Below, piece by piece: positions 6,787-50,018 of a stretch of 64,000 nucleotides of DNA. Origin of the DNA: an uncultured Thermofilaceae archaeon (GTDB lineage: Archaea > Thermoproteota > Thermoprotei > Thermofilales > B69-G16); the NCBI GenBank assembly GCA_964501905.1, contig CAZCTW010000009.1, forward strand, positions 11,342-75,341, given 5' to 3'. The notes under the pieces were generated by a model. That model worked only from the letters and a program-made list of their open reading frames with translations, was not told the DNA's origin and made no database searches. Position 1 is the first letter of the stretch; each line of letters starts with the position of its first letter. A program made the translations under genes and the position numbers.

Positions 6787-8418
6787 CTAGTATTCTCCGA
6801 ATGCAGGTTTTTCTTCCTTGCCCTTTTCCTTCTCTTTGGGCGGCGATGCCGCTATAATATCATCTATTCTTAAGATCATGGCTGCTGCTTCGGTAGCCGA
6901 TTTTAACACCTGCTTTTTAACCACAGCCGGCTCGATAACTCCCGTGTCTAACATATTCTCTATTTTGCCCGTGAATACATTTACGCCAGCCCACTTCTCT
7001 CCAGCTGCATGTTTCTTCCTTAGCTCTGCTATTATATCTACGGGTTCTAACCCGGCGTTTCGAGCTAGTACAGCTGGTAGGAACTCTAGGGCGTCAGCAT
7101 ATTTCATTACTGCTAGTTGTTCTTTGCTAGGTAGGGTCTTAGCGTATTCCCTTAACCTTTTAGCTATTTCCATTTCTATAGCTCCGCCGCCAGCGACGAT
7201 CTTAGGCTCTCTAATTATATTGCGTACAACCGATAATGCGTCATGTATTGCGCGTTCAGCTTCGTCTACCACGTGCTCGGCGCCGCCCCTAATTAGTATG
7301 GTTACCGCTTTGGGGTTGGGGCATCCTTCGATGAAGACCATCTTGTCTTCAGCTACTTTTCTCTCTTCTACTATCTTGGCATAGCCCAAGTCTTTTTCTG
7401 TTAAATCGTCGATGCTTGTTACTATCCTGGCTCCGGTTGCTCTGGCTAGTTTTTCCATGTCTGATTTCTTTACTCTTCTAACAGCTAGTATGCCTTTCTT
7501 AGCTAAGAAGTGTTGAGCCATGTCATCAATGCCTTTCTGCGTGATAACTACGTTGGCGCCGGTCGCGGCTATTTTATCCACCATTTTCTTAAGCATAAGG
7601 GCTTCTTGTTCTAGGAACATCTTTAGCTGTTCTGGACTCGTTATGTTTATCTTAGCTGACCACTCCGGCTTCTCTACTTCGAGGGGCGCGTTGAGTAGTG
7701 CTATTTTGGCATCCACTACTTTGCGGGGCATGCTCGGGTGTACAACTTCTTTATCTAGCACTATACCCTTTACGAGCTCGGTTTCCTCTAGGGATTCGCC
7801 TTTCTTTTTCTCGATCTTGACATTATCCAGTTTAAACTCGTACTTGCCATCTTTCTTTTCGACTACTTGGAGGGCAGCGTTTACCACTAGGTCTGCCAGA
7901 AATTCTTTATATTCGGCTACAGCTTTACTGCTGAGGGAAGTAATTGCTACCTTCTTTAAAACTTCTTTATCAAGGGGATCTACGGGCTCGGCTATTTCAT
8001 CTACAATCTTTAAGGCTTGCTCGAGAGCCTTTTCAAAACCTTCCGTTACCATAGTCGGGTGAATTTCTTCATCTAATAGCTCGTTAGCATTAGCTAGTAA
8101 TTGTCCGGCTAAGACGACGACTGTAGTTGTTCCATCTCCTACTTCATCGTCTTGCGCTTTTGCCACCTCTACCAGCATTTTAGCTGCTGGATGTTGCACG
8201 TCCATTTCCTTAAGTATAGTAGCGCCGTCGCCCGTTATCGTCGCGTTACCGAAGGAGTCTACTAGAAGCTTATCCATGCCTCTAGGACCTAGAGATGAAG
8301 CCAAGGCTTCTGAGATTACTCGAGCGGCGTAGATGTTCGATCGTCTGGCTTCTCTACCCACGGTTCTGCTGGTTCCTTCTTTTAATATTAGAACAGGTAT
8401 TGCCTGTTGAGCCTGCAT
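6787..8418 (-). CDS. ths: Thermosome subunit (group II chaperonin)
   Basis: 543 aa. [23 protein letters not shown]-like GAGGAGGTG upstream of the ATG. Confidence 0.97.
7418..7509. repeat. 92-nt tract, 91/92 identical (in inverted orientation) to 9521-9612 in the paralogous thermosome gene
   Basis: By-eye alignment of the reverse complement with 9521-9612 gives 79 consecutive identical nt plus 12 more after one K/E codon change. Flanking codons differ freely. Confidence 0.85.
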
Positions 8419-8605: not shown

Positions 8606-10255
8606 ATGGCTGTGGCTCAACTGGGAGGAGTACCTGTTCTAATATTAAAAGAAGGAACCAGCAGGACGACAGGTAAGGAAGCTCTCCGTAATAACATTAT
8701 GGTTGCTAAAGCTATAGCTGAAGCTGTGAAAACTACTCTCGGACCTAAAGGCATGGATAAAATGTTAATAGATAGTCTTGGGGATATTACGGTCACTAAT
8801 GACGGTGCTACAATCCTCGACGAAATAGATGTACAGCATCCTATTGCCAAGTTAATGGTTGAGATCTCTAAAGCGCAAGACGATGAAGTAGGAGATGGAA
8901 CAACGTCTACTGTAGTTATCGCTGGTGAACTGCTTAAAGAGGCAGAAAAACTTCTACTAAAGAATATTCATCCAACGGTCATTGTATCCGGCTATAAGAA
9001 AGGCTTAGAGAAGGCTAAGGAGATCATAAGGAAGATGGCGATCAAGGTTTCTCTTGACGACGAAGAGACGCTTAAGAAGGTCGCCATGACCGCGATGAGA
9101 GGAAAATCTGTGGCCGCTGTCAGGGAGTACCTTGCTGAACTATCTGTAAAAGCTGTAAAACAGGTCGCTGAGGAGAGAGATGGAGAGTTCGTGGTAGATC
9201 TGGACAATATACAGTTAATTAAGAAAAAGGGAGGCGCCATTTTAGATACTAAACTAGTTTATGGAGTGATTATAGATAAGGAAGTTGTGCACCCAGGAAT
9301 GCCTAAGCGCATCGAAAATGCCAAAATAGCGCTCTTAGACGCTCCTCTAGAAATTGAAAAAACGGAGATTGATGCCGAGATAAGAATTCACGACCCAGAG
9401 CAGATGCAGGCGTTCTTGAAAGAAGAAGAGCGCCTGTTGCAGGAGAAGGTTAAGAAGATTAAGGAAGTGGGAGCTAACGTAGTTTTCGTTCAGAAGGGAA
9501 TTGATGATGTAGCCCAGCATTTCTTAGCTAAGGAAGGCATACTAGCTGTTAGAAGAGTAAAGAAATCAGACATGGAAAAACTAGCCAGAGCAACCGGAGC
9601 CAGGATAGTAACTAAAATCGAGGATTTAACTCCTGAAGTCCTAGGCGAGGCGGGTCTTGTTGAAGAGCGTGAAGTTGCTGGAGACAAAATGGTGTTCGTA
9701 GAGCAGTGTAAAAACCCCAAAGCAGTTAGCATACTGATAAGAGGAGGACTAGAAAAAGTTGTAGACGAGGCAGAACGTTCTCTCATAGACGCTCTCAGCG
9801 TAGTAGCGGACGTAATTGAAGAGCCCTACATACTGCCAGGTGGAGGCGCGCCTGAAGCAGAGGTAGCTAAAGAGCTTAAAAACTACGCGGCTCAATTAGG
9901 AGGTAGAATTCAACTAGCCGTCGAAGCTTTCGCGAACGCTGTGGAGGTTATACCGAGAACCTTGGCCGAGAACGCTGGTCTAGATCCCATAGATATACTA
10001 GCTGAACTACGTGCAGCTCACGAGAAGGAGGACGGGTGGAAGTACGGGATCGACGTATTTGAAGGTAAAGTATCGGACATGCTTAAGCTAGGTGTCGTAG
10101 AACCGTTGATAGTGAAGGAGCAAGCGTTTAAGGCAGCTACTGAAGCCGCTACGCTGATACTAAGAATTGATGATATAATTGCTGCGTCCAAGTTGGAGAC
10201 TAAAGAAGGTAAAGAAAAAGAAGAGAAGGGAGAAAAAGAAAGCGAATTTGACTAA
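8606..10255 (+). CDS. ths: Thermosome subunit (group II chaperonin), paralog of 6787-8418
   Basis: 549 aa. [23 protein letters not shown]-like GAGGTGAT upstream. Divergent from the other subunit across a 187-bp spacer. Confidence 0.97.
9521..9612. repeat. 92-nt tract, 91/92 identical (inverted) to 7418-7509
   Basis: See 7418-7509. Encodes [31 protein letters not shown]. Confidence 0.85.
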
Positions 10256-10256
10256 A

Positions 10257-10538
10257 CTACCCCCCCGTTATTTGTCCAATTGTTGCGTTATAAATAGCGT
10301 CTAAATCCTCACCTAATACTTCCACTATGAACTTATCTAATGCCCCTTCTGAGCCTTGGTAAGCTAACTTTAACGTAGCTATAAGGTCGGATAGCAACGT
10401 GAGCAGGATTACCATAGCTATCAGGCTTAATCCCAAGAGCAAGCCTTCTTCTATCATTTGACTTCCCTTTTTCCCGTTTCTTTTTTCCTTGTTCAGCATT
10501 AGCTTAGTTATCATCTCCTGTACTATATGGACTATCAC
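10257..10538 (-). CDS. Flp/Epd-like type IV pilin candidate
   Basis: Likely start MLNKEKRNGKKG|SQMIEEGLLLGLSLIAMVILLTLL. Basic leader, Gly, Glu at +5, then a ~20-aa hydrophobic helix (pattern G/xxxxE[YE]GL as in Flp and EppA-dependent pilins). Last gene of the operon. Confidence 0.55.
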   Translation of the reverse strand: MIVHIVQEMITKLMLNKEKRNGKKGSQMIEEGLLLGLSLIAMVILLTLLSDLIATLKLAYQGSEGALDKFIVEVLGEDLDAIYNATIGQITGG

Positions 10539-10585
10539 ACTCCCCTACGAAGATGTGCACTAACCTATATAAGCTGGCTAACTCC

Positions 10586-11434
10586 TTATTCTTCGTCTAT
10601 TCTTTTATAGTAGAACTTTACCTTGGGGAAACGTATGCGGTCTATACTAGCTCCTGAATTCCTCGCGTAGAGGTCTACTAGGGAGAATTTAAGCGTGCAC
10701 TTGTAAAAGGTAGAATTTTCATCTTTCCGAATTGGCGTGCATGCAAGGTTATGCTCGGCTTTTATTCCATATTTTGCAATTCCGATGAACACTTTCCTTT
10801 CCATGTACTTCTCTGGCGTGAGAGAACTTACAATAGTTCTTTCTCTTAGTTTCTTTATAATCGCAAAGCCGATCTCATGTAGTTTGAAATAACGCAGAGA
10901 TATGCATACGACCAGCGTCTCATTTTTTCCATAAAATATTCCGTAACTTTGGTTTTCGTAGAAGTAATTCATGTTAGTAATGCCACATACAGATCTTGAG
11001 TTAATTTTTTTACCGTCCAAAAGCCTAAAGTTTACCTTTTGTTTTAAATCTCTATACTCGCAAATGGTTATATTAGAAGTAAAAAATGTTACAGTCTTAT
11101 TCTTAACTGTAAAGTAGCTTTTTAACTCTGAACTGCTCCATGCGTCCCTTAGCAAGGCATTATAGGCAACATTTATTCTCTTCTCTACTTCTCTTCTAGA
11201 AAAGCATTTTTTCGAAGCTAATTCCATTTGTTTAACGAAGATCTCGCTTAAGATATCTAGCTGGACGTAATTGACGTTTCTACATATTCTTTCCACCTGT
11301 TTTAAAGCGAGTACTTTCTCTTTGATAGTTATGTAAAACGCGTAAATTTCTAAGTAGACGTGCAACGTAGAAACCGCTGTAATACTTATGAGCAAAACTG
11401 CTATTGCTATTAAAATTCCCCTTCTATTCTTCAA
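10586..11434 (-). CDS. Secreted/pilin-like protein with class-III-like signal (MKNRRG|ILIAIAVLLISITAV)
   Basis: 282 aa. Basic N-terminus + Gly + hydrophobic helix, then a soluble domain. 11-nt overlap with the upstream gene. Confidence 0.45.
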   Translation of the reverse strand: MKNRRGILIAIAVLLISITAVSTLHVYLEIYAFYITIKEKVLALKQVERICRNVNYVQLDILSEIFVKQMELASKKCFSRREVEKRINVAYNALLRDAWSSSELKSYFTVKNKTVTFFTSNITICEYRDLKQKVNFRLLDGKKINSRSVCGITNMNYFYENQSYGIFYGKNETLVVCISLRYFKLHEIGFAIIKKLRERTIVSSLTPEKYMERKVFIGIAKYGIKAEHNLACTPIRKDENSTFYKCTLKFSLVDLYARNSGASIDRIRFPKVKFYYKRIDEE

Positions 11435-11867
11435 GCTTACACACCACGTAAATATGAATCATTTTCATTTTACCATTGTCATATGCTAACAAGGCAGAGT
11501 GCGCCGTAATGTTTGAGTAAGCTTTTTCAGGATATTTGCATAAAATTCTTCTAGCATTTTCCCAATGGCAGACATATCCGCTCTCAGTCACTAGTGTTTC
11601 ATTCTTTTCCAAGATTTTATCCATTAATTCCAAGGCTATTTCTTCACTCAGATATCTACATTTTTGCTTACTTTGAAAACTTACCAATTGAGCAAATCTA
11701 TTTTTAGAGTATAGAATGACTGAAAAAAGGAGAATGACTACAATGGCTGTGCATAGAATATCAATCAAATATCCTCTCATAATCCCCCTTCCAGTATATG
11801 TTCTGTGATTTGTTCTATAAGTGAGAAATTGACTATCCATGCTAGTAAAACTAGGAAAATCAAACAT
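11424..11867 (-). CDS. Pilin-like/minor subunit candidate (single N-terminal TM)
   Basis: 147-aa ORF. Probable start at MRGYLIDILCTAIVVILLFSVILY. Soluble domain follows. Confidence 0.4.
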   Translation of the reverse strand: MFDFPSFTSMDSQFLTYRTNHRTYTGRGIMRGYLIDILCTAIVVILLFSVILYSKNRFAQLVSFQSKQKCRYLSEEIALELMDKILEKNETLVTESGYVCHWENARRILCKYPEKAYSNITAHSALLAYDNGKMKMIHIYVVCKLEE

Positions 11868-11909
11868 ATAAATATGGCTACAGTTACCGATATCAATAAA
11901 ATAGACCCC

Positions 11910-12239
11910 TTACCCGCCATAAGGATAGACCTCTATTCGTCCATCGATTTTTTCAACTATGTAGGTCTCGCCTCCATGTATCGATATTAAGCTTCCAAAC
12001 TCCGTAAGATTCATAGTTAAGGTATAGTTTTGACCAAGCTCAGGAACTGTAAAAACCAAATAACCACCTTCGGGAATTTTTAAAAATACTCCCTGTAATA
12101 TTCTCTGCAGTAGGATTAGAGGACAGTCAAACGATACAGATGTTACTTCGTTTTGACATTTGACTAGGAGCCCTAGCACTAGCGTAAATAGGATGAACCA
12201 TACGAATACTGCGAGAAGCTCCTCGACAACTTTGCTCAT
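11910..12239 (-). CDS. Leaderless pilin-like protein
   Basis: 109 aa. MSKVVEELLAVFVWFILFTLVLGLLV has Glu at +5 after Met removal followed by a hydrophobic helix. ATGA start/stop overlap with the upstream 46-aa ORF. Confidence 0.45.
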   Translation of the reverse strand: MSKVVEELLAVFVWFILFTLVLGLLVKCQNEVTSVSFDCPLILLQRILQGVFLKIPEGGYLVFTVPELGQNYTLTMNLTEFGSLISIHGGETYIVEKIDGRIEVYPYGG

Positions 12240-12376
12240 ATACTCACCCTAATATTCAAGATTTTGATAATGTCTTGTAGAAATTTTCGAAGTAGGAGAA
12301 TGAAAAATGGCAAGGCGATAGTCGCTAGGATGAGTGAAATGGCTTCTATTAGGCTTTCCTCTATAATCCTCTTCAT
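12236..12376 (-). CDS. 46-aa leaderless pilin-like micro-protein (below ORF-track cutoff)
   Basis: Hand translation: MKRIIEESLIEAISLILATIALPFFILLLRKFLQDIIKILNIRVSI*. Its stop TGA overlaps the ATG of the next gene. Same xxxxEE-hydrophobic N-terminus as its neighbours. Confidence 0.4.
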   Translation of the reverse strand: MKRIIEESLIEAISLILATIALPFFILLLRKFLQDIIKILNIRVSI

Positions 12377-12423
12377 ATCCTCCAGATTTGTGAAAAAAAG
12401 GATATAAGGAAGCGAAAAACAAG

Positions 12424-13677
12424 CTATTCGAATGCCCAGGCGAAATTTTCTAAACAGAAATTTATTAAAAAGAACAAAACAATAAAGGCAATCACTTTCT
12501 TGAGAGCTTCATAACTCCTATGCCGGGTTAAGTCTAGACTTAGAGAGGAGATAAAGAGCGAGAATATATACCCCGCTAGGAAAAGAGTTAAATTGTTATT
12601 GGCTTTTTTAAATATAAAAATTAAAGCGAAAACTAAAGCTATTGTTGCGGAGGAAATATAGTATACGATGTCGGATTTATATTTTAAAATATGCATTTTA
12701 TCGCATAAATCTTTTAACGTTATTCTGCCTTTTCTTAAAACTATAATAAGATTTTCAATCTGTCTAATTCCTGTCTCAAGGCTGCTATTTTCCAGTATAG
12801 TGCTAATACCATTGAGGAAATGATCTGAGCTATTTAGGAGATGTCTTCGGGAGAAAAGCCATTCAGCAAATCTATCCTCGATTAACTCCTTTTTGTTATT
12901 TTTGAGGAACTCCTTCAGAGCATTTTCAAAATTCACACTCTTTTTCAGGCGTTCTAATGTCCACGAGAGCAATAGTTCGAAATTTAGATTTTCTTTTAAT
13001 AATTCTTTACATCTATCATCTCGTTCAGATTTTTTTAGATAAAGATAAAGGGTTAAGAGTATGAGAAAGAATAGAACTATGTAAGCAGGGTTTGAGTATT
13101 TACAATAGAATAAGAATTCAATTCCACCTAGCGTGGAAGTAAAAGCGGCCAATATTGCAACATTGAAATTTAACCGGTAATCACTTATTTTACTGGCTAG
13201 GAAGAAGTGCAGGATAATAGTAGAGAATGTTAAGAAGAGAAATGCTCTATAGAAATCCAGTATTCCGAAAAAAATAGAGAGAGAAAGGAATATCGGGATA
13301 AAAGCTGTTAAAGCTACAAAAAGCATTATTTTATCCTCTAATTTCTTAATGTAGCTCTTAAAGAGTAACTGTTCTTCATCAAATATTCTGAGGGGATACT
13401 CTTTTATTTCTCTTTGAGGTGGGGGTGAGAAGAAAAGCAATTTAATTAAGTATGGCAGGTGTTCATCTTTGAAATTTCCGTTATCTTCTTTTATGAAATT
13501 GCGTAAGTTGAAACTGATCTTCTTAAATAAATCTGACGAAGAGATTTTAGCTAAATCCCTTACTGCTTGATAAGTATTGCCTCTTCTAGAGAGATAAAGA
13601 ACTACAAAAATTATTGTATCTTGTACAGTGGATATGAAATCTTCAAATTTCACTTTTACACCTGGCCAGGAATTCAT
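12424..13677 (-). CDS. TadC/FlaJ-like polytopic platform protein of a type IV filament system
   Basis: 417 aa. Two blocks of hydrophobic helices, each preceded by a charged soluble segment. Overlaps the ATPase gene by 35 nt. Position and architecture fit the T2SSF family; no sequence search was done. Confidence 0.6.
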   Translation of the reverse strand: MNSWPGVKVKFEDFISTVQDTIIFVVLYLSRRGNTYQAVRDLAKISSSDLFKKISFNLRNFIKEDNGNFKDEHLPYLIKLLFFSPPPQREIKEYPLRIFDEEQLLFKSYIKKLEDKIMLFVALTAFIPIFLSLSIFFGILDFYRAFLFLTFSTIILHFFLASKISDYRLNFNVAILAAFTSTLGGIEFLFYCKYSNPAYIVLFFLILLTLYLYLKKSERDDRCKELLKENLNFELLLSWTLERLKKSVNFENALKEFLKNNKKELIEDRFAEWLFSRRHLLNSSDHFLNGISTILENSSLETGIRQIENLIIVLRKGRITLKDLCDKMHILKYKSDIVYYISSATIALVFALIFIFKKANNNLTLFLAGYIFSLFISSLSLDLTRHRSYEALKKVIAFIVLFFLINFCLENFAWAFE

Positions 13678-15514
13678 TAAGGCATAACCGTATACCCTTT
13701 AGGTTTTTACTGTTTAGTAGTTCTCTAATTCGCTTTATGAGGAGTATTACCTGCGTCTTTGAGAATCTATTTTCAATGGATATTTTTTCAATTAACCTAG
13801 AATTTTCATATGCAAGGGTTCTTTTAAGTACGTTATCGCTTTGTCTAATAAAGAGAGGATGAAACCAGCGAAGAGGATACTTTTCTTCAATGCTTGCAGC
13901 TCTCTCGAGAATCAGCGATACTTCCTTTTTATCTCTCCGATAAAGGTCTCTTCTCATGAAGACTATTAGATCGAGGCTTTTTAGAAGACTAGGCGAAATA
14001 GAGAAAACTTCGGTATACCTGTATATTAATTGTTCTAAACTAAGGGCGTGCGTAGTCTGCATACACCTTAAGCCAGCATTCATAGCGTGAAAAGCCGCCA
14101 CTACATGTTCCCTGCTCTGCAACTCTCCCAGAATTAAATAATCAGGTTTCCGATGTAACATTTTCACAATTTCAATAGCTTTACTCGAAGGCCCCCACTC
14201 CGATTCTTCAAAAGCACCAACTTTAAGCCTTAATTGATGCTTACCCTCTTTTAATTGGTTAACAGATTCAACCACATCTTCGATGTATACCTTTCTGAAA
14301 GTTCTAGGAAGTAGCATATCCAGAGCGTTAAGTAGCGTGGTCTTACCACTTCCGGGTTCGCCGCATATAAGTATATTAGACCGGAAAATAGCCGCTATTA
14401 GCAAGAAAGCCGCGGCATCTGCTGTAAGAGTGCCGCTATTTACTATGTCCACCAAGGTCATAGGTTTATTTCGGTATTTCCTGACGTCTAAAGCTACGCC
14501 GTCTACTGCAAGTGGAGGTACGTCTACAGCAACTCTAACTCTGAATAAGCAAGTTATGTAGTCTGTTTTTAGTGAGGGTGACGAAAATGAGATGAAACTT
14601 CCTGTATCAATTTTTATATGGGTTAGAAAGGCTTCTAACTCCCTCGGGGATAGCGCTATGTTAGATAGGCATCTTCCGTATTTTTCATGGTCCAAGTAGA
14701 TTTTCGTAGAGGGGGCATCTTGGAAAAATTCCTGCACATAGTCGTCTAAGAGAAATGGCATTACACGGGTTACCTTAATTGAACTAAAAAATGATAGGTA
14801 AGCCAATTTTTTCAATTCCCTCTTTGTGATTCTTGAGAGAACATCCGGACAGAAACTTTGCGCTATGCCATGGAATAGGCTAAGTCTGTGATCGAGAATA
14901 TCATCAAAGTGAGCTATTGCAATTTTCTTAAAGAAATATCTTCGGTCGTATTCCACTAACAAACTCCCTAAGGACATATATGAAAGCTTAACATCTACGC
15001 ACTCTGAGAAAATTCTCACTCGATAAAAACTTTCTAATGTTTTTGTATCTAATATATCGACATTATAACAGTAAACTTCGTATGAATCTCTGATGGAGTT
15101 TTTCCTTTTTCTTTTTCCAGGAATTTTCTCAAGATTAATATACCGTAGCAATTCTCTATTTTGATCAAAAGAGAAATTTTTAGGAAGTAAACGCATCTTT
15201 TTAATAAAGTCTAAATTTCCATTCAATAGATTCTCAAGGGCATCATAGGCTTTATTATTGAAAACCGCCGATACTCTAACTTTGTTAACAGCGTCTGCGA
15301 GAGGCGCGAGGATGCTGAAGATAGTTTTCTTATCTAGAATAGCACATTCTTTGCCATCATAAAGTATTAAACTGCTAAATGATTTCAGCAAACGCGCTCG
15401 AAGAGAGAATACCCTAACTAATTCATCTAGAATCTCCTCGCCTAGTCTTCCATTATTTGTAAAGCCGATTTTTTTAACTTTAGAGCTCTGTCTTGCGTAG
15501 ATTTCTATTCTCAT
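13643..15514 (-). CDS. Type II/IV secretion-family ATPase (FlaI/TadA/VirB11-like) with ~350-aa unique N-terminal region
   Basis: 623 aa. Walker A ILICGEPGSGKTTLLNAL, IEDVVE, Walker B-like PDYLILGELQSRE, His-box MQTTHA. Confidence 0.85.
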   Translation of the reverse strand: MRIEIYARQSSKVKKIGFTNNGRLGEEILDELVRVFSLRARLLKSFSSLILYDGKECAILDKKTIFSILAPLADAVNKVRVSAVFNNKAYDALENLLNGNLDFIKKMRLLPKNFSFDQNRELLRYINLEKIPGKRKRKNSIRDSYEVYCYNVDILDTKTLESFYRVRIFSECVDVKLSYMSLGSLLVEYDRRYFFKKIAIAHFDDILDHRLSLFHGIAQSFCPDVLSRITKRELKKLAYLSFFSSIKVTRVMPFLLDDYVQEFFQDAPSTKIYLDHEKYGRCLSNIALSPRELEAFLTHIKIDTGSFISFSSPSLKTDYITCLFRVRVAVDVPPLAVDGVALDVRKYRNKPMTLVDIVNSGTLTADAAAFLLIAAIFRSNILICGEPGSGKTTLLNALDMLLPRTFRKVYIEDVVESVNQLKEGKHQLRLKVGAFEESEWGPSSKAIEIVKMLHRKPDYLILGELQSREHVVAAFHAMNAGLRCMQTTHALSLEQLIYRYTEVFSISPSLLKSLDLIVFMRRDLYRRDKKEVSLILERAASIEEKYPLRWFHPLFIRQSDNVLKRTLAYENSRLIEKISIENRFSKTQVILLIKRIRELLNSKNLKGIRLCLNEFLARCKSEI

Positions 15515-15520
15515 GGTTAG

Positions 15521-16474
15521 CTAAAGGGCGCCTATGATAGAATATATGTATTTTACGTTGTTTCTGAAAGCGCTTAAAGAGCATCCGAATTTCTTAGATA
15601 TATATCCTTGACTAATCACTCTTTTGCCATATATCGCTATGAAAACTACGTAAAAAAGGGCAAGTGCTAAGATATGAGGATTTTTGCCCTGTAGTTTTCT
15701 TGGATCGACCTTATGTAGTAGAAACATAGCTTTTTGACAGATTTCTCTTTCAAGTAGGTACACATTTTTAGCCCCAACTTTACGTTTTACTCTTTCATCG
15801 GAAAGAATTCTCTTTGTAATAACTGGTATAATTCTTCTTATTCTATCAGCCACACTCGGCTTTTCATACATTTTAAAGGATTGAAGAAGAAAAATTGCCT
15901 CCATTAAGTTAGACTTAGTAACACGATGACCCAGGTCCTGATAGACTTTAAGGATATCACTAACTCGTATGCTAAACCCATGCTTTCTGGAGGACGCTAT
16001 TAAACAAGCGGCTGAAATTCTGTAATGGTTAAGTTTACCATTTAGGTTTTCGTCAATATTCCTTAAGAATTTCAGGTATAGTGCGTATGCGTACTCTACA
16101 ACGTATTTCGGCAATCCCACTTTTTGAGCTGCGATGTATAACGTCTTGTGTACTCTGTAATGCATTGACTTGTCTCCTGCAACCTTAGAAAAAAGGTTTA
16201 GCCTGCTCATTCTCTTTAATTTACTGTAAAAGTGGAAGTTAATTTTAAAATCGAGTTTTTTCGCACAAGCTGGAGATAGAAATGTGCCCAGCTCTAGCGG
16301 AGCTGGAGTATAACCTTGGGCAGTAATTCTATTGGCTAGAATGTAGGATTCTTCTCTAATTCTATTCTCTACGTGAACTAAACCGCACACGCTGCACACG
16401 AGCTCACCATTTTCGTTTAAGACCAGTTTTCCTCCACATTCCATGCAATACATAGTCCGTAAGCGACTCTCCAA
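15521..16474 (-). CDS. TFIIB (TFB) paralog
   Basis: 317 aa. N-terminal Zn ribbon CMECGGKL...CSVCG, then two cyclin-like repeats (RISAACLIASSRKHGFSIRVSDI; PHILALALFYVVFIAIYGKRVISQGYISKKFG). Stop lies 6 nt before the ATPase ATG. Confidence 0.8.
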   Translation of the reverse strand: MESRLRTMYCMECGGKLVLNENGELVCSVCGLVHVENRIREESYILANRITAQGYTPAPLELGTFLSPACAKKLDFKINFHFYSKLKRMSRLNLFSKVAGDKSMHYRVHKTLYIAAQKVGLPKYVVEYAYALYLKFLRNIDENLNGKLNHYRISAACLIASSRKHGFSIRVSDILKVYQDLGHRVTKSNLMEAIFLLQSFKMYEKPSVADRIRRIIPVITKRILSDERVKRKVGAKNVYLLEREICQKAMFLLHKVDPRKLQGKNPHILALALFYVVFIAIYGKRVISQGYISKKFGCSLSAFRNNVKYIYSIIGAL

Positions 16475-16557
16475 CTTTTGCTTTTAAATTATGAAGCCCG
16501 CAAGCGCCCCGGGGGGAGGGGAATATTTTTATCCTCAAACTATAGTAAGAATAAAGA

Positions 16558-16642
16558 GGGCCCGTCGTCTAGTGGCTAGGGTCTCTGGCTAAGACGCCAC
16601 CCTCACGAGGTGGAGGTCCGGGTTCGATTCCCGGCGGGCCCA
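16558..16642 (+). tRNA. tRNA-Val(CAC) with a ~13-nt insertion (probable non-canonical intron) in the D-loop
   Basis: Acceptor GGGCCCG/CGGGCCC, anticodon arm CCACC-CTCACGA-GGTGG, T-arm CCGGG-TTCGATT-CCCGG. D stem GTCT/AGAC encloses 21 nt (AGTGGCTAGGGTCTCTGGCTA) with TGGCTA duplicated. Confidence 0.85.
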
Positions 16643-30074: not shown

Positions 30075-31094
30075 TTATTGTTTGGTCCATCGTCCGTTTA
30101 TTTTTTTGTATAGTTTTTTCCATTTTTCTGCTGCTGTTTTTGTGTCGTATTTTTGTAGTAGGGTTAGTGCGTCTTGGAGTTTTTGTTGTTTGCGTTTTAT
30201 TTCGAATCCTATTTGTTGGGTGTATTTTTTGATGTCGTTTTTTCGGTAGATTACTAGTTGGTATGTTTCTTTGACTTTTACTTTCATGTTTTTTATTATG
30301 ATTTCTTCGTTTTCTTTTCGTACTTTTCTCCAGTGGCAGTGTATGTTTTTTAGTTTCAATAAGTATTCTACGAATTTTAGGAATTCTATGGAGGAATTGC
30401 CTATAGTTATTGCAATGTAAAGTTTGCCTTTGCTCGGAGAAACGCACGGCCCTCCGTCTCCGTCGAATGCTCCTTTTAGGAATTCGTTGGGGTATATGTA
30501 TGCTATGATTTTCCAGAGGTTTATTTTGCAGATGTAGCGTATTGTTGTTCCGTTGTGGTAGACTACGTATCTTCCGTCTTTTGTTTTGGATATTTGGTAT
30601 TTTTTGCCTGTTATTTTTGATAGTTTTTGTGCGTATTTTTCTGCGTAGTCTCGGTCTTTTACTCTTAGTTTTGCTGTGGTGCTTCGGCAGGCGTCTGTGA
30701 GTGCTGTTCCTATTATGTAGCCTAGTTCTGGGGCTGTTTTTAGTGGTGTTGTTCCTGGTTTTGTTTTGCCGGTGATCCACCAGTATATGGTCATTGGTGG
30801 TATTTTGATGCCTAGTTTTTCTTGGAGTTTTTTGGCTATTTTTCTGCGTCCTAGTTTTTTCATGGTTAGGGCTAGTTTGTAGGCTTTGTTGTATAGTAGG
30901 GCTTTTTGTAGTGGTGTGGGTTTGTATGGTATTAGTTCGTTATGATAGATTTTCTCGATTTGGTCTTTGGGGATTTTAGAGCGGTAGATTTTTTGAATTA
31001 TTTTCACCGCGTCTTCTATTTTGTAGCCTGCGGTTTTGAGGAGGAGTACCGCGTCGAAGATTTCAATAGGAATTTTCCTACTCTCCATACTCAT
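30075..31094 (-). CDS. LAGLIDADG-type (double-motif) endonuclease-like protein with N-terminal HTH region
   Basis: 339 aa. Motif 1 LGYIIGTALTDA, motif 2 FLKGAFDGDGG. N-terminal GRRKIAKKLQEKLGIKIPPMTIYWW is HTH-like. Confidence 0.7.
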   Translation of the reverse strand: MSMESRKIPIEIFDAVLLLKTAGYKIEDAVKIIQKIYRSKIPKDQIEKIYHNELIPYKPTPLQKALLYNKAYKLALTMKKLGRRKIAKKLQEKLGIKIPPMTIYWWITGKTKPGTTPLKTAPELGYIIGTALTDACRSTTAKLRVKDRDYAEKYAQKLSKITGKKYQISKTKDGRYVVYHNGTTIRYICKINLWKIIAYIYPNEFLKGAFDGDGGPCVSPSKGKLYIAITIGNSSIEFLKFVEYLLKLKNIHCHWRKVRKENEEIIIKNMKVKVKETYQLVIYRKNDIKKYTQQIGFEIKRKQQKLQDALTLLQKYDTKTAAEKWKKLYKKINGRWTKQ

Positions 31095-31461: not shown

Positions 31462-33279
31462 TCATTGGTATATTTGGAGGAGTATGTGCGCTTTTTCTGT
31501 GAGTTTTCCTTTTTCGTTTATGTATCCGTGTTTTCTGAGGGTTTTTCTCTCTTGGAGGGTTGTTTGTCCTTTCTGGTATTTTCTGATTAGGTGTGCTATT
31601 TTCTCCCACTTGTCTACGCGTCTGTGTTTTCTCTGGGGCGGCGTCGGGGTGTATCTGGGTTTTACCTTTATGTGGGCTATTCTCCCTCTCTGGGATGTTA
31701 TGCATTCTCCTGTTTCGAGTTTTTCGATTTTCGCTGTTAGTTCTCTATGTCTGCTGGGGGATAGGGCTTTGGCGGCTATTTCCGCGTCTACTCCGGTGCA
31801 GTGGAAGACCGCTATTGTCTCGGCGTTGTTTATGATTGAGCTGTGGAGGGTGCTGGGGGTTTGGGTTGCGGCTATTATCTTTACTCCGTGCTTCCTCCCC
31901 TCGTCCATTAAACGCTCTAGGAAGGTTTTCGTTTTGAGGAATCTGGGAGCCAGCCTCTGCGCCTCGTCTAGGACCAGCACGGTTTCCATGCTTGGAGGAT
32001 CGTAGTACAGGTTTTGGAGGAGGAACCAGGTGAAGACTGTTTTCTCGTAGTCGGTTTTTAGGCTGGATAGGTCGATTGCATATATTCCCTTGTCCTCGGG
32101 CGGGGGTAGGTTTCTGTTGAAGCACCTACCCGTAAGCCTGGAGAGCCTCCTCTTGACGGCTGCGGCGGCGTTTCTCTCGTCTTCCCTCCTAATATCCATC
32201 GAGGACAGCGCTTCGTACAGGGTTAGGGGGGTTACGGGCAGTCCTAGCTTTTCCACTTGGAGGGCGGCTTTTCTAGCTACTTCATACTGGATTGGGCTGA
32301 ACTCGCTCCTCTGGGTGGTGTAGAAGAGTATCTCCTCTATGCTATCCCATCCGTGGTCGAAGCCTAGCCAGAAGGGGTTTACGTAAACGTCTACGCCGGG
32401 GATTAGCCTATAGCCTAGACCCGCGTATTCCCCGTATCAGTCCAAGATCAGCACTCTCTTCTCTCTGCCCAGCCCCTCCACCAGCCTGGCTATAAACGTG
32501 CTCTTGCCCGAGCCGCTCGCGCCAATCACTAACACGTGGGTCTCCACTTCTATACCGGTGATCCCATTCCTGGTGCAGCCTATTTCAACTCCTTTATCCT
32601 CGTGGTAGGTGGAGCCTCTGACCATAGCGCTGGCCGTCTCCCACACGTACTCGCAGGCCTTTAGCTTCGTCAACTCTTTCGCCCGCCTGCCCCCTAGGGG
32701 GTAGAGCCCGGTCTTTAACAAAACCTTCTTCCCCGTCTTCATCCCCTCTATTACGAGCACGGCGGCTCCCGGGTTTCCATAGGTTTTAATCCTAGAGCCC
32801 ACCTTCAGTTTAGGCAGCTCGGCTAGAGGCTTGAGCTTAAAGCCCATCTGCTCTAGCGCCCAGCGAGGGCTGTAGCCGTCATCTAGGATGAGGTAATGTT
32901 TCTCGAAGGCTATTAGACACCTGTTATCCAGGGTCCTTACGAAGTATAGCCTACACTTCTCGGGCACGTTAAGCTTTAACTCGAAATCCCCGGGAACCCC
33001 CGTTACGGCGTAGATTTCCAGCCGGCATCCCCACAGTCCGTGTGCTCCTCTAAAATACTCCCCGTTCCACCTGTAGCTCAGGTATAAGAGTTTGAGGATC
33101 TTGGGGACTAGGATTGACGAGAGTATGGAGATGATGACTGGCAGGAAGCTAAATCTTATCCACGGCAGGGCTATTATCGAGCCTATGTAGATTATCCAGG
33201 GCGGCATCCTGGTTTTTAAGCCGTTGAGTATTTGCGTTGTTATCTCCTTCAAAGCCTCGAGGGGCATATCCTCAGCCAT
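31462..33279 (-). pseudogene. Membrane-anchored HerA/VirB4-like (DUF87-type) ATPase interrupted by one in-frame TGA
   Basis: ORFs 32437-33279 and 31462-32256 are in the same frame, and 32257-32436 is open. The single stop at 32437-32439 sits in VLILD*YGEY (hhhhDxxGEY motif). Two N-terminal TM helices, Walker A GASGSGKST, Walker B VLVLDEAQ. Confidence 0.75.
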
Positions 33280-33281
33280 GT

Positions 33282-33350
33282 TAGATTTTATCTAAAATAT
33301 TAGAATTTTAATATTTAATATTAACGCTATGTGATCTAAATTTTTTAGAT
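33282..33350. promoter_or_regulatory. AT-only divergent control region with three palindromes
   Basis: TAGAT-TTT-ATCTA (33282-94), TTAATATT-T-AATATTAA (33308-24), ATCTAAA-TTT-TTTAGAT (33334-50). Lies between divergent starts at 33279 (ATPase) and 33381 (wHTH). Confidence 0.5.
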
Positions 33351-33380
33351 TTAAACATAAAATTTATTACTGTTTTCGGC

Positions 33381-33701
33381 GTGTCTGTTATTGTGAAGAC
33401 TTCGGATATAGTTGACGTAGTGGAGAAGATAGGGGATTTGGGGGGTAGGGTGTTTCCCTCCAGTATATCAACGAATACCAAGTATGCTATGGAGAAGATC
33501 GCGAAGTTGGAGGAGCTGGGGCTGGTGAGGAGGGTTAGGGTGGGGAAAAGGAGGGTTTACGAGTTGACCGAGAAGGGGTTGAGGGTTTACGGTTTGATTA
33601 GGGAGATACGCGGGATTGTACGGGGGGAGGGGCCGCCTAGAGGGGAGGAACCCGTTTTTATAAGGAGTAACCCGTGGCTTAAAGCTCTGGGGGAGGGTTA
33701 G
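33381..33701 (+). CDS. Winged-helix transcription regulator
   Basis: 106 aa, GTG start. KIAKLEELGLVRRVRVGKRRVYELTEKG is a wHTH recognition helix plus wing. Confidence 0.65.
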   Translation: MSVIVKTSDIVDVVEKIGDLGGRVFPSSISTNTKYAMEKIAKLEELGLVRRVRVGKRRVYELTEKGLRVYGLIREIRGIVRGEGPPRGEEPVFIRSNPWLKALGEG

Positions 33702-33702
33702 G

Positions 33703-34293
33703 TTGAGGTTGAAGTACGTTAAAATAGGCAGATACGAGTTCAGCAACGTCCACTTATCGTTAATGTACCCGAGCGAGGCGGCTCGGGTTTTCGGTGTTGG
33801 GAAAGACGAGGCTTTGGGGATTATCGAAGACGCTAGGAAGAGCCTCGCTGGTTGGATGCCGGAACCCCTCCCCGTCAAGATAGGCTTAATCGATTATTAT
33901 CTGCCCCCGGGGGTCCACTTGATAGTCGACAGGTATGGTTTATTAAAGGAGTCTATCAGCCCAGCCCCCCTTATAGTGCCCGATTATCTGGACGGGGAGT
34001 TCGTGAAGTACGTGTTTTTCGAGTTGCCGAAGCTCCTAGAGCGAGAGAGGCGCTGCGTGTTTATAGAGGATTTGGACGACCGCTTCACTAGGAGCGTAAG
34101 GCAGGGGTTGCTATATATCACCGATCTTTTAAAGAGGATTTCCGCCGCCTATAACGTTCAAGTGGTGGCGTCCGGCTCGTCCGTGCTCGAAGAGGTTTTT
34201 GAAGGTTGGACTAACGTCTTCACGGTTTACAGGAGAGGCGGGGGGATATACGTTCTAGTAAAGCCCGAAAACATAGTCCGTAAGATCGCGTGA
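33703..34293 (+). CDS. Hypothetical protein, possibly a degenerate RecA/KaiC-fold protein lacking Walker A
   Basis: 196 aa, TTG start, 1-nt gaps to both neighbours. GLIDYYLPPGVHLIVDRYG resembles the pre-P-loop segment of RadB/KaiC but without GxxGxGKT. CVFIEDLDD is Walker-B-like. Confidence 0.35.
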   Translation: MRLKYVKIGRYEFSNVHLSLMYPSEAARVFGVGKDEALGIIEDARKSLAGWMPEPLPVKIGLIDYYLPPGVHLIVDRYGLLKESISPAPLIVPDYLDGEFVKYVFFELPKLLERERRCVFIEDLDDRFTRSVRQGLLYITDLLKRISAAYNVQVVASGSSVLEEVFEGWTNVFTVYRRGGGIYVLVKPENIVRKIA

Positions 34294-34294
34294 G

Positions 34295-35257
34295 GTGGAA
34301 GGCTTGGATACTCCTATCGACGAGCTCCTTAAAGTGCCTGGGATTAGCAGGGTTTTAGTGGGGAAGTTGAAGAGTATTGGGCTGGAATACCTAGAGGACC
34401 TCGTCTTGTTCAATCCCGAGGAGCTGGTTGAAAGGGCTGAAATAGCGGATCTCCGTAAAGCCGAGTTCTTGATAAAATCGGCTAGGAAGATTTTAGGGAG
34501 GAAGAGGAGGAGCTTAACCGCTAGGGAATACCTTAGGTTGATGGAGTCCAGGGAGTTCTTCACGACGCTCGTAAAGGCTATAGACGGGCTTTTAGGCGGA
34601 GGCATTAGAGTTATTGACGTCTACGAGTTCGCCGGAGAGTTCGGAACGGGTAAAACCCAGCTGGCCCACCAGTTGAGCGTTACCGTTCAACTGCCGCCGA
34701 GCAGGGGAGGTCTTGGGGGTAAGACGGTCTATATCGATACCGAGGGGACCTTCAGCCCGGAGAGGATATATGATATAGCCGAGGGGCTCGGGTTAAGCGA
34801 TGCTTTAGACAACGTTTTCGTTGCGCGTCCCGTCAACGTGCTCGAGCTCGAAGACGTGGTTATAGAGGATCTGCCTTCTCTCATACGCAGAGGGGTTAGA
34901 CTCATAGTTATCGACAGCATTATAGCTCTATACAGGGCGGAGTTTAAGGGTTTGGAAATGCTGGCTTATCGCCAGCAGAGGATTAACTATCTCATAGATT
35001 GGTTGAAGAGGTATAGCTATAGGTACCAGTTGGCCGTCGTGTACACTAACCAAGTGTTAAGCCAGCCCGTGCCTTGGGGTTTTGCCTATAAAGTGCCAGC
35101 CGGAGGGAATATTATAGCGCACGCCGCTACCCACCGTTTTCTCTTGAAAAAGACTGGCTCCGAGTGGGTTATGGAGTGTTTAGATAGTCCTACGATTCCA
35201 AGAGGAAAAGCGGCGAGGTTCAGAATCACAAAGCATGGATTGAGGGATGTCGAGTAA
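34295..35257 (+). CDS. radA: RadA/Rad51-family recombinase (full architecture)
   Basis: 320 aa, GTG start. N-terminal HhH region (LLKVPGISRVLVGKLKSIGLEYLEDL), Walker A GEFGTGKTQ, TVYIDTEGTF, Walker B LIVIDSI, TNQV, GGNIIAHAATHR. Confidence 0.88.
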   Translation: MEGLDTPIDELLKVPGISRVLVGKLKSIGLEYLEDLVLFNPEELVERAEIADLRKAEFLIKSARKILGRKRRSLTAREYLRLMESREFFTTLVKAIDGLLGGGIRVIDVYEFAGEFGTGKTQLAHQLSVTVQLPPSRGGLGGKTVYIDTEGTFSPERIYDIAEGLGLSDALDNVFVARPVNVLELEDVVIEDLPSLIRRGVRLIVIDSIIALYRAEFKGLEMLAYRQQRINYLIDWLKRYSYRYQLAVVYTNQVLSQPVPWGFAYKVPAGGNIIAHAATHRFLLKKTGSEWVMECLDSPTIPRGKAARFRITKHGLRDVE

Positions 35258-49005: not shown

Positions 49006-49098
49006 CGGGCCCGCCGGGATTCGAACCCGGGACCACCGGCTGTCTACAATTTGGTAATTACCGCAGGCCGGCACTCTATCCAGCTGAGCTACGGGCCC
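49006..49098 (-). tRNA. tRNA-Arg(GCG) with a 19-nt canonical (37/38) intron
   Basis: Acceptor GGGCCCG/CGGGCCC with G73. Anticodon stem CCGGC/GCCGG enclosing CTGCGG[TAATTACCAAATTGTAGAC]A. T-arm CCGGG-TTCGAAT-CCCGG. Confidence 0.9.
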
Positions 49099-49190: not shown

Positions 49191-50018
49191 ATGGAAAGTT
49201 TCAAAAAGAATAAAAGCTATTTTTTAATTTGGTGTTTTAGAATGGCAGAAGGATATGAGTATATGGTAAAAGGACAAAAAGAGGCTAGAATAGGTTTAGA
49301 CAGCGAAGAAGATATTATTCGTATGATAAATTTCAATGAAAAATTCCGTAATTTATTAAAGGAGTGTCTTATAACACTCGGTTTTAATCCCAAAGAAAGG
49401 ATAATAGCACGAAAGGATGGCGTGAAAACAGATATTCTCATACGAATCAATGAACAAGAAGAAATCGGTGTAAGTATAAAGTCAAGTACAAAAACTAGTT
49501 TTCATCAACTAGATAGAAGACGTCTTGAAGAGTGGAAAACGTTTCTGAACATGCCGGATGAAATTTTTGAAATAATAAAGGAAGCAATATTGCGAATTGC
49601 TAGAAATTCTAGAAATAAATTCATATTAGAAAAAAATCAAGATAAAATAAGAAATTTCCTTGCTAAACATCTTCGTGAAATAATAAATGAAATATTTAGA
49701 AAAGGAGAGCAAAAATTGAAATTATTCATGATAAATGATAAAAGGAAAAGAAGAATATATATCTTTCATATGGATGATGTTCTTAACTTTCTGTTTAAAA
49801 ATGCAAATAATAACATATCTTTTACAGAAAAAGGAATTATAAGACTTGGTAACTTTATGACGATTCAAAGAAAAGGTGGTGATGGAAAACACATCACTAT
49901 TCCCAAAACCGATTGGAGACATCCTGGCAATCAGCTGCAATTTAAGTTTTCTCCATTAAAATTTGCAGAATACATTGAATTAACAAAGGCAATTAAATTC
50001 TGTACTATAGATTACTGA
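49191..50018 (+). CDS. Type II restriction endonuclease candidate (PD-(D/E)xK-like)
   Basis: 275-aa ORF; likely start is MAEGYEY at 49242. KTDILIRINEQEEIGVSIKSS looks like a D...E.K / SxK catalytic strand. Converges on and overlaps the methylase gene by 14 nt. Confidence 0.55.
   Translation: MESFKKNKSYFLIWCFRMAEGYEYMVKGQKEARIGLDSEEDIIRMINFNEKFRNLLKECLITLGFNPKERIIARKDGVKTDILIRINEQEEIGVSIKSSTKTSFHQLDRRRLEEWKTFLNMPDEIFEIIKEAILRIARNSRNKFILEKNQDKIRNFLAKHLREIINEIFRKGEQKLKLFMINDKRKRRIYIFHMDDVLNFLFKNANNNISFTEKGIIRLGNFMTIQRKGGDGKHITIPKTDWRHPGNQLQFKFSPLKFAEYIELTKAIKFCTIDY

Follow-up and report, generated by a model that had tools for sequence, protein, structure and literature searches.

We analysed a stretch of 64,000 nucleotides (nt) of contig CAZCTW010000009.1 (assembly GCA_964501905.1) from an uncultured Thermofilaceae archaeon, referred to here as the window, in which a packed block of minus-strand genes at 10257–16474 pairs a paralog of the archaeal transcription factor TFB with components of a type IV filament machine. 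An initial annotation, made from the sequence letters, had described eight co-directional genes. The strand and the coordinates held, whereas the count is nine: a TFB-like gene, a secretion ATPase gene, a platform gene and six, not five, small genes. As annotated, the TFB-like and ATPase genes are separated by 6 nt (15521 versus 15514), and the ATPase and platform genes overlap by 35 nt, or by 11 nt if the platform protein starts at the GTG matching the start used in the related locus of a 'Thermoprotei archaeon' (L003, 61% ATPase identity). ATGA and 11-nt start/stop overlaps chain the small genes from s46 through s282, and the last gene, for a Flp-like pilin, ends 1 nt from the stop codon of the convergent second thermosome gene. 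The packing of the block is operon-like. The same gene set recurs in dozens of genomes, which places the block beyond chance, and the homology of the ATPase and platform proteins, together with the pilin-like genes, bears out a type IV filament-type operon.

Three gene calls were revised. A 57-amino-acid (aa) open reading frame (ORF) with a TTG start (12249–12422) lay in the wrong frame and was dropped, the true gene being a 46-aa ORF at 12236–12376. An apparent gap of 129 nt was refilled with a 47-aa gene (11777–11920) that is conserved in L003 and in a second related locus, L004 (52% ATPase identity). Finally, a '147-aa' ORF was shortened to 118 aa, with the start MRGYLIDIL.

Genes and predicted promoters of the operon

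The first gene (15521–16453; all nine genes and the promoters described below lie on the minus strand) encodes a diverged TFB/TFIIB paralog of about 310 aa, with a Zn ribbon, a poorly conserved linker and two cyclin folds. Its ORF reaches a TTG at 16474, and the most likely start is the ATG at 16453 (MYCMECGG). Pfam searches with the protein gave 29.2 bits for Zn_Ribbon_TF (cut-off 29) and a sub-threshold 21 bits for the TFIIB repeat. Searched against the PDB, a profile of nine sequences of the TFB-like family (A1) matched human TFIIB (7e-12) and Pyrococcus TFB (6e-11), and its alignment with TFIIB falls into two stretches, the ribbon plus the first cyclin fold and then the second cyclin fold. 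The AlphaFold2 model (predicted local distance difference test score, pLDDT, 67) likewise contains a Zn ribbon, a disordered segment at residues 36–100 and two five-helix repeats, and its top PDB matches in Foldseek are TFIIB and TFB. Across the family, Pfam detects the TFIIB repeat in 41 of 49 members and Zn_Ribbon_TF in 30 of 49. The TFB/TFIIB family is defined by an N-terminal Zn ribbon and two cyclin-fold repeats, and gene 1 has both; beside them it keeps the ..S.S..RN.. recognition-helix motif. That the gene is a paralog and not the housekeeping TFB, as annotated, was borne out by its 19 bits on the NCBIfam TFB model (PRK00423; cut-off 384). Copies linked to the system in other lineages score 19–77 bits against the same cut-off, and contig L014 carries a full-length 188-bit TFB 4 kb upstream in addition to a 19-bit copy that abuts the ATPase gene. 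Judged by these homologies, gene 1 is a fast-evolving TFB paralog.

The second gene (13643–15514) encodes an archaeal-type secretion or assembly ATPase of 623 aa, and its annotation as a member of the FlaI/TadA/VirB11 family was confirmed by Pfam (T2SSE, 1.1e-19, 70.8 bits; gathering score 24.9). The best NCBIfam model was FlaI (1.5e-30, 106.5 bits; equivalog cut-off 550), followed by TadA (8.8e-19), and a sequence search of the PDB returned AfGspE (8.9e-28), FlaI (5e-20) and CpaF (5.8e-17). The AlphaFold2 model (pLDDT 89) gave the same order in Foldseek, with AfGspE (2OAP) and FlaI (4II7) at about 1e-25 over some 490–517 alignment columns and CpaF behind both. Contrary to the annotation, which had left about 350 N-terminal residues unassignable, most of that region aligns to AfGspE and FlaI; only about 135 residues are lineage-specific, comprising an extra N-terminal alpha/beta domain (1–107) and a disordered linker (109–135). 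The C-terminal region (547–622) is helical, and the protein has no Cys cluster. By homology, the protein is an ATPase of the AfGspE/FlaI type, with a predicted hexameric assembly. Its family is sharply bounded, with about 43 archaeal proteins below an E-value of 1e-45 and the next match at 1e-25.

Because FlaI is the best NCBIfam match of the ATPase (1.5e-30) and among its best structural matches, the locus could be read as an ordinary archaellum (FlaI/FlaJ) with its partners encoded elsewhere, sitting beside the housekeeping TFB. We consider this scarcely credible. The FlaI score of 106 bits lies far below the equivalog cut-off, and a gap of 20 orders of magnitude in E-value parts the ATPase family from all other T2SSE ATPases. 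The block genes encode no archaellin and no FlaH/KaiC domain by Pfam, as the annotation had stated, and FlaF, FlaG and FlaX genes are likewise missing. Nor does the neighbouring gene look like a housekeeping TFB, given its 19 bits and the co-occurrence of a more canonical TFB in L014.

The third gene (12424–13677) encodes a polytopic protein of 417 aa with about seven transmembrane (TM) segments. Direct searches were empty for Pfam, for NCBIfam and, with a five-sequence profile, for the PDB, and a word-based homologue search returned just two matches. The protein was placed by profile comparison with two families encoded beside homologous ATPases. Residues 208–413 match MEM2, a family of proteins of about 235 aa (hhalign probability 97.6%, E 3.9e-12), and residues 14–130 match the second such family, MEM1 (93.8%). 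Pfam T2SSF is in turn matched by 10 of 25 MEM1 members and 8 of 32 MEM2 members, and the MEM2 profile also matches PilC (9e-4) and GspF. Because its halves match families whose members match T2SSF, the platform protein is, by homology, a fusion of two TadB/TadC-like repeats, in line with the TadC/FlaJ-like polytopic protein of the annotation. In several relatives (for example, L009, L029, L034 and L060), two contiguous single-repeat platform genes take the place of the one fused gene of the window.

The six remaining genes encode small proteins, each with an N-terminal helix and none with a Pfam or NCBIfam match. The last of them (10257–10514) encodes an 85-aa precursor with a basic leader of 17 aa (MITKLMLNKEKRNGKKG) and a mature part of about 68 aa that would begin SQMIEEGLLLGLSL, with Glu at +5. 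Around the predicted cleavage site (arrow) it reads KKG↓SQMIEEGLLLG, with E at +5 and +6 and G at +7, and the alignment of its family (A6) has the consensus [KR][AG]↓[SAG][PQ]L[IV]EEGLLIG, which condenses to A↓SPLVEEGLLIG; mature parts in the family span 40–68 aa. This motif and architecture suggest a Flp-like short pilin, a candidate for the major subunit. Class III signal motifs were identified by eye in this protein (KKG↓SQMIEE) and in three others, s47 (KG↓S), s282 (RRG↓I) and s118 (MRG↓Y). The 47-aa s47 (11777–11920; MAGKG↓SILLISVTVAIF...) is mini-pilin-like, with a canonical class III signal-like N-terminus that is conserved in L003 (KDKG↓SSLII...) and L004 (TNRG↓STIAI...); its gene overlaps both neighbours and came to light in the reading frame that closes with a TGA overlapping the ATG of the following gene. 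The minor-pilin-like s118 (11424–11780; 118 aa, MRG↓YLIDILCTAIVVILLF...) has 116-aa orthologues in the same two loci (MRGYMIDIL and MRAYLVDMV). The largest small protein, s282 (10586–11434; 282 aa, MKNRRG↓ILIAIAVLLISITAV...), is a candidate large minor pilin or adhesin, with orthologues in L003 and L004 that share its N-terminus and positional analogues in L007, L009, L018 and L019. Iteration of hidden Markov model (HMM) searches with the s282 and s118 families found nothing past the three closest genomes. The pilin-like s46 (12236–12376; 46 aa, MKRIIEES..., MKRIIEESLIEAISLILATIAL...) opens with an N-terminal helix and is nearly leaderless; the stop codon of its gene shares an ATGA with the start codon of the following one, and L003 and L004 have homologous small ORFs at the corresponding place. 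In s109 (11910–12239; 109 aa), MSKVVEE precedes a hydrophobic helix; it is a minor-pilin-like accessory candidate, and iterated HMM searches found its family in 14 loci of Thermoprotei, Bathyarchaeia, Nitrososphaerota and Brockarchaeota. As the annotation had noted, no prepilin peptidase accompanies these genes: the block genes have no such Pfam match, and a GxGD-motif scan of all window genes yielded no polytopic candidate, one of the two other polytopic window proteins being Rce1-like.

Three promoters can be inferred within the block. P1 (16481–16521), upstream of the TFB-like gene, has a TATA-like box, ATAATTTAAAAG, at 16481–16492, some 30 nt ahead of the ATG; positions 16511–16521, further upstream, form a C-tract, CCCCTCCCCCC. 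P2 (CCTTATATC, 12401–12409) is internal and lies upstream of the chain of minor-pilin genes; TTCC(C)TTATAT is kept at its position in L003 and L004. P3 (CTTATATAGG, 10564–10573) precedes the Flp-like pilin gene and is kept in L003 (TTTATATAG...TGCAC). The TATA boxes of the three are conserved with L003, L004 and L012. The bases ahead of the box are CTTC at P1 and P2 and AGCCAGC at P3, with no purine-rich B recognition element (BRE); the thermosome, EF1a and S13 promoters of the window have purine-rich BREs of the AGAAAA/CGAAAG type.

The combination of C-tract and TATA-like box upstream of the TFB-like gene is also found in L004, L005, L007, L012 and L025, six loci with the window included. 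In these loci, whose flanking genes differ, the tract (CCCCTCCCCCC or C7–C11) lies 13–25 nt upstream of the box, and in some of them a G-run or a palindrome follows it. At least nine C in 11 nt occur in 10 of 57 regions upstream of TFB-like genes versus 20 of 1,015 background regions. A regulon sharing the C-tract was considered and rejected: the exact 11-mer CCCCTCCCCCC occurs twice in the window, its second copy (33622–33632) lies inside a GC-rich coding region, and 12 of 100 shuffles contain at least two matches. We treated the second copy as chance. A motif that seemed to be shared across phyla, TACTTTCGGTCAT upstream of Asgard TFB-like genes, was also set aside, because its complementary strand reads ATGACCGAAAGTA, the opening of a divergently transcribed LsmC gene.

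Linkage of the TFB-like and ATPase genes across archaea

A scan of 185,579 species-representative genomes (GTDB) returned 247 relatives of the ATPase, and the locus counts given here use the best 80, all from metagenome-assembled genomes. Components were counted by HMM searches of six-frame ORFs in these 80 loci, which come from Thermofilaceae, other Thermoprotei, Bathyarchaeia, Nitrososphaerota, Nezhaarchaeales, Brockarchaeota, Methanomethylicota and most Asgard lineages, with Asgard genomes contributing 32. The close relatives are all uncultivated. The TFB-like gene was found in 62 loci, and in 50 of the 55 with at least 4.5 kb of upstream sequence; in BLAST clustering, only the ATPase gene outranks it in conservation within the module. 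The Flp-like pilin is present in 53 loci (47 of the 64 with at least 4.5 kb downstream), the MEM1 and MEM2 platforms in 37 and 50, respectively, and a membrane-anchored DUF87/HerA-like ATPase in 33 (31 of the same 64).

Most clustered TFB-like genes (50 of 61) lie on the strand of the ATPase gene. The two are directly adjacent, on the same strand with a gap within 150 nt, in 23 loci; in 20 loci the gap is 30 nt or less, overlaps included, and seven of these 20 overlap. The TFB-like gene stays with the ATPase gene where the flanking genes differ, as in L005, L007, L025 and the Borrarchaeota loci, and L005, L007 and L009, with 42–50% ATPase identity over the best-matching segments, keep the pair in other contexts. 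A frequent frame runs TGT, LsmC, Rpb8, then the module (TFB-like ... ATPase, MEM1, MEM2, Flp, HerA-like), then AAA18, thermosome and S17e; a thermosome gene is adjacent in 16 loci across lineages, and Rpb8 lies directly upstream in 12. The pairing of a TFB-like gene with the pilus machine is conserved from Thermoproteota to Asgard archaea.

Some loci depart from the gene content of the window. Four small genes encoding N-terminal helices lie between the TFB-like and ATPase genes, on the opposite strand, in L009, L018, L019 and L029. A conserved cytoplasmic coiled-coil protein of about 150 aa is encoded directly before the ATPase in L009, L018, L019 and L041. In the Thor loci that carry a HerA-like gene (seven of eight, for example L077 and L080), this gene encodes about 1,250 aa; in L079 it appears as two adjacent ORFs.

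Described relatives and the proposed role of the TFB-like protein

The initial annotation had taken the arrangement to be without precedent among described loci, which does not hold. Makarova, Koonin and Albers 2016 (PMC4858521) already reported TFIIB homologues in archaeal type IV pilus (T4P) loci and listed them among predicted T4P regulators. They describe arCOG01981, with a Zn finger and two cyclins, as 'found in many T4P loci', and place the TFIIB homologue arCOG05559 within an operon of Thermoproteales subclade 4D, together with a short ATPase, a protein of 4–5 TM segments and an adjoining Rpb8 gene (PMC4858521). These authors found no pilins in 4D and proposed that it had been repurposed for a 'transcription-related' function; of the 4D system, Pyrobaculum and Thermoproteus keep only the ATPase, the membrane protein and TFIIB beside Rpb8, and in the authors' supplementary tree 4D comprises Korarchaeum, Vulcanisaeta, Pyrobaculum and Thermoproteus, with a Thermofilum-specific long branch apart (PMC4858521). 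A preprint by Sivabalasarma and Albers 2026 repeats the view of 4D as pilin-less and possibly repurposed, and describes type IV filament (TFF) systems as rare and nearly absent in Asgard archaea.

Like 4D, the window locus places a secretion ATPase beside a diverged TadC-like membrane protein and a TFIIB homologue within a single predicted operon, and both occur in Thermoproteota and evolve fast. Rpb8 adjoins the module in 12 related loci (for example, L009, L018, L019, L041 and L077), although not in the window. Several features nevertheless differ. The 4D ATPases (arCOG05558) have 335–343 aa, a Cys-rich N-terminus and no C-terminal domain, whereas the window ATPase has 623 aa and the full AfGspE/FlaI architecture; the 4D membrane protein has 4–5 TM segments, compared with about seven and a double T2SSF repeat in the window; the 4D TFIIB has one cyclin domain and the TFB-like protein two; and 4D is pilin-less whereas the operon has six pilin-like genes. 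By these comparisons, which use reported lengths and features, the window locus lacks the defining features of 4D. A common origin of the two is likely, given the synteny of Rpb8, TFIIB, ATPase and platform genes in the relatives. The window operon is a distinct, pilin-bearing variant with a long ATPase, and its family is much wider than the searched literature describes.

TFIIB homologues also accompany filament genes on mobile elements, as thaumarchaeal integrative and conjugative elements (ICEs) combine VirB4, TadC, FlaI, pilins and TFIIB (Krupovic et al. 2019, PMC6563490). An association of TFIIB with T4P genes is likewise present in the Nitrososphaerota loci of our set. However, the TFIIB gene of the ICEs is coupled to ParB and VirB4/VirD4 on mobile elements, whereas the window locus is chromosomal and syntenic. 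The reports on arCOG01981 and on the ICEs are at the level of a census and define no conserved module, Flp-like pilin family or Asgard distribution.

The label 'Tad/Epd-like' proved partly apt. As in the Epd pili of Methanococcus and the bacterial Tad/Flp pili, the candidate major pilin of the operon is very short and carries G↓xxxxE(E/Y)G, several putative minor pilins accompany it, and the contiguous single-T2SSF platform genes of the relatives resemble TadB/TadC and EpdJ/K, two single-repeat platform genes being a hallmark of the Epd/Tad clade (Denise et al. 2019, PMC6668835). In the window, by contrast, the platform is fused, the ATPase is nearer to AfGspE/FlaI than to CpaF/TadA and has a long archaeal N-terminal region, the gene order is ATPase then platform, and a TFB paralog is present, whereas TadZ/FlaH, an EppA/TadV peptidase and a secretin are missing.

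We lean, with modest confidence, towards a reading in which the operon encodes a type IV filament machine and its first gene a dedicated initiation factor for the operon's own promoters. The 17-aa pilin leader would first be cut off at KKG↓S by a class III peptidase, presumably encoded at another site of the genome, and the ATPase and platform protein would then extract the Flp-like pilin from the membrane and polymerize it into a filament. The five other small proteins, three of them with [KR]G-type class III signal-like ends, would serve as minor pilins or as priming or tip subunits. The TFB paralog would replace or assist the general TFB at P1, P2 and P3, much like an alternative sigma factor encoded with its regulon, and its position as first gene would make the operon self-reinforcing. 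The filament would most probably act in adhesion or cell–cell contact; speculatively, the HerA/VirB4-like ATPase in the operons of many relatives hints at the transfer of DNA or other macromolecules.

An initiation role is suggested because the TFB-like protein retains the ribbon, both cyclin folds and the recognition-helix motif, because the TATA boxes of P1–P3 are conserved and because these promoters lack a purine-rich BRE; TFB3 of Sulfolobus adds a functional precedent. TFB3 is truncated and not known to keep the cyclin/DNA-binding core, and its gene is not known to be linked to the ups operon. Feng et al. 2018 (PMC6101594) report that this TFB paralog activates the ced genes and the type IV pilus operon ups, and trace the effect to its Zn ribbon and to a coiled-coil motif, which work together with further transcription factors at the promoter. 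Being devoted to turning on a pilus operon and genes for DNA exchange, TFB3 is the best functional precedent for control of a pilus by a TFB paralog, although the TFB-like protein of the window differs in being full-length and encoded by the first gene of the operon. Bacterial sigma-28 (FliA) is an alternative initiation factor encoded within the flagellar regulon it serves. That parallel is one of working principle only, as the two factors are not homologous and no anti-factor is known for the TFB-like protein.

Several points weigh against this reading. The B-reader/linker region (residues 36–100) of the TFB-like protein is poorly conserved and predicted to be disordered, which makes normal initiation activity uncertain, and the copy in L009 has no Zn ribbon. 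The promoter and BRE comparison covers a handful of sequences, and the role of the TFB-like protein is read from domain retention and gene order only. On the side of the filament, the Flp-like pilin family matched neither Pfam (Flp_Fap included) nor the PDB, s46 (MKRIIEE) and s109 (MSKVVEE) have no canonical G/A at –1, and a motif scan found no polytopic GxGD protein that could be a family A24 prepilin peptidase in the window or the 80 loci; class III signal peptidases are often unlinked in archaea. Finally, the near-universal linkage of the TFB-like and ATPase genes and their frequent overlap fit a stoichiometric partner at least as well as an initiation factor.

Such a partner would be a physical part of the machine and not chiefly a promoter-specific initiation factor, docked on or sequestered by the ATPase (for example, by its extra N-terminal domain) or the platform protein, and would either couple the assembly state to transcription, as in the checkpoint formed by FlgM and sigma-28, or place the machine in a 'transcription-related pathway', as suggested for 4D. 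We hold this to be unlikely. It accounts for the presence of the gene in 50 of 55 loci and its rank behind the ATPase alone in conservation, for the overlaps or gaps of at most 30 nt in 20 loci, for the position of Rpb8 directly upstream in 12, and for the reduction of the 4D system in Pyrobaculum and Thermoproteus to ATPase, membrane protein and TFIIB by Rpb8 without pilins. However, most members keep all the TFB domains for contact with TBP, DNA and RNA polymerase, and roughly half of the same-strand loci have 150–4,000 nt, with other genes, between the TFB-like gene and the ATPase gene.

The frequent HerA-like gene raises a different alternative, that the module serves chiefly for the transfer or uptake of DNA or other macromolecules, a short-pilin filament acting jointly with a HerA/VirB4-like translocase of the membrane. 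Its logic would resemble that of competence pili, of Ced/Ted or of the conjugation modules in thaumarchaeal ICEs, modules in which TFIIB homologues likewise occur. In 33 of the 80 loci the DUF87/HerA-like ATPase gene comes after the pilin gene in the same direction, the ICEs pair VirB4, TadC, FlaI and pilins with TFIIB (PMC6563490), and a 605-aa HerA-like gene, at 70.7 bits on the HMM of the HerA-like family, lies 16 kb away in the window. Yet the window operon itself has no HerA-like gene and the distant copy has an in-frame TGA; no relaxase, VirD4 or ParB was seen, and the housekeeping flanks (TGT, LsmC, Rpb8, thermosome and S17e) speak against a mobile element. We rate a transfer apparatus as quite improbable.

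The HerA-like frame of the window (31462–33279, minus strand) would encode a membrane-anchored HerA/DUF87/FtsK-like ATPase of 605 aa. It is interrupted by a single TGA at the position of a Trp in L009 (VLILD(stop)YGEY versus VLILDWHNEY), and the score of 70.7 bits is that of the read-through protein. The TGA could be a nonsense mutation, a sequencing error or a recoding event.

A bolder extension of the filament reading treats the whole set as one ancient, undescribed module, found in Thermoproteota and most Asgard archaea, of which 4D would be a reduced descendant. Its components would be the TFB paralog, an AfGspE/FlaI-type ATPase, TadB/TadC-like platforms, a Flp-like pilin and, often, a membrane HerA/VirB4-like ATPase, with the TFB paralog an integral, co-evolving part of the machine. 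We put this forward tentatively and consider it doubtful. If true, the TFB paralog would either read a non-standard BRE as an archaeal 'alternative sigma' or tie transcription to the machine's state of assembly.

It is a matter of debate whether the TFB paralogs of archaea behave as alternative sigma factors do in bacteria, and a TFB paralog physically tied to one small, recognizable regulon in more than 60 genomes of two superphyla offers a natural factor–promoter pair. The Flp-like pilin in 53 of 80 loci and the 32 Asgard loci bear on the descriptions of 4D as pilin-less and of such systems as nearly absent from Asgard archaea. The short pilins and the split platforms may also matter for the view that the bacterial Tad pilus came from archaea (Denise et al. 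2019, PMC6668835).

Chromosomal setting and other features of the window

The initial annotation had also suggested that the block is a recently acquired genomic island beside a tRNA-Val gene. The tRNA gene itself is real: tRNA-Val(CAC) lies about 100 nt from the start of the block, at 16573–16642 (plus strand) by ARAGORN and 16558–16642 by Rfam. The AT-richness on which the suggestion drew is present but mild, as the block is somewhat more AT-rich than the thermosome genes, with a gene GC content of 0.325–0.408 against a window mean of 0.415 (standard deviation (sd) 0.05). Its GC content at third codon positions (GC3), 0.31–0.46, lies within about 1.2 sd of the window value (0.414, sd 0.087); the neighbouring metallo-beta-lactamase (MBL) gene is equally AT-rich, and other genes of the window are more extreme.

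Synteny, operon orientation and GC3 all contradict an acquisition at the tRNA gene. L004 keeps the gene order between the same MBL and thermosome genes and has no tRNA at the site, and L003 keeps the order and the thermosome flank as far as its contig reaches, which is into the TFB-like gene. Elements brought in by tRNA-targeting integrases normally adjoin the tRNA gene at its 3′ end. The operon lies 5′ of tRNA-Val and is divergently transcribed. No integrase was seen among the genes flanking the block, where direct repeats were not searched for, and the thermosome, Rpb8, LsmC and TGT flanks recur across phyla. A recent island is very improbable; the operon is an old, vertically inherited chromosomal locus.

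Two other regions of the window deviate more in composition. Positions 49191–52074 hold two genes of very low GC (0.29–0.32; GC3 0.23–0.25); no other coding region of the window is as AT-rich, and an island is more plausible there than at the pilus operon. A GC-rich block at 31462–35257 (GC 0.50–0.53 and GC3 0.59–0.70, against a window mean of 0.41), also far more deviant than the operon, contains the HerA-like gene, a small winged-helix-turn-helix-like ORF, an ORF of unknown function and RadA (Rad51, 8e-59). An ORF with a LAGLIDADG domain (30075–31094, GC 0.38) lies just downstream of it.

The Rfam model of tRNA-Val starts 15 nt further 5′ than that of ARAGORN, and the added stretch resembles either a second copy of part of the D-arm or a short non-canonical intron. 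A 93-nt tRNA at 49006–49098 (minus strand) was reported by Rfam but missed by ARAGORN, probably on account of an intron. Next to the operon, two thermosome paralogs (6787–8418, minus strand, and 8606–10255, plus strand) diverge from a 187-nt spacer with near-identical promoter boxes (...AAATAGAAGCGAAAA...). Elsewhere, at 56100–57713 (plus strand), the window encodes a second, unrelated ATPase with a T2SSE domain (537 aa; Pfam T2SSE, 1.8e-08), without adjoining platform or pilin genes, which may be of the archaeal PilT-like/PIN-KH type of Makarova et al.

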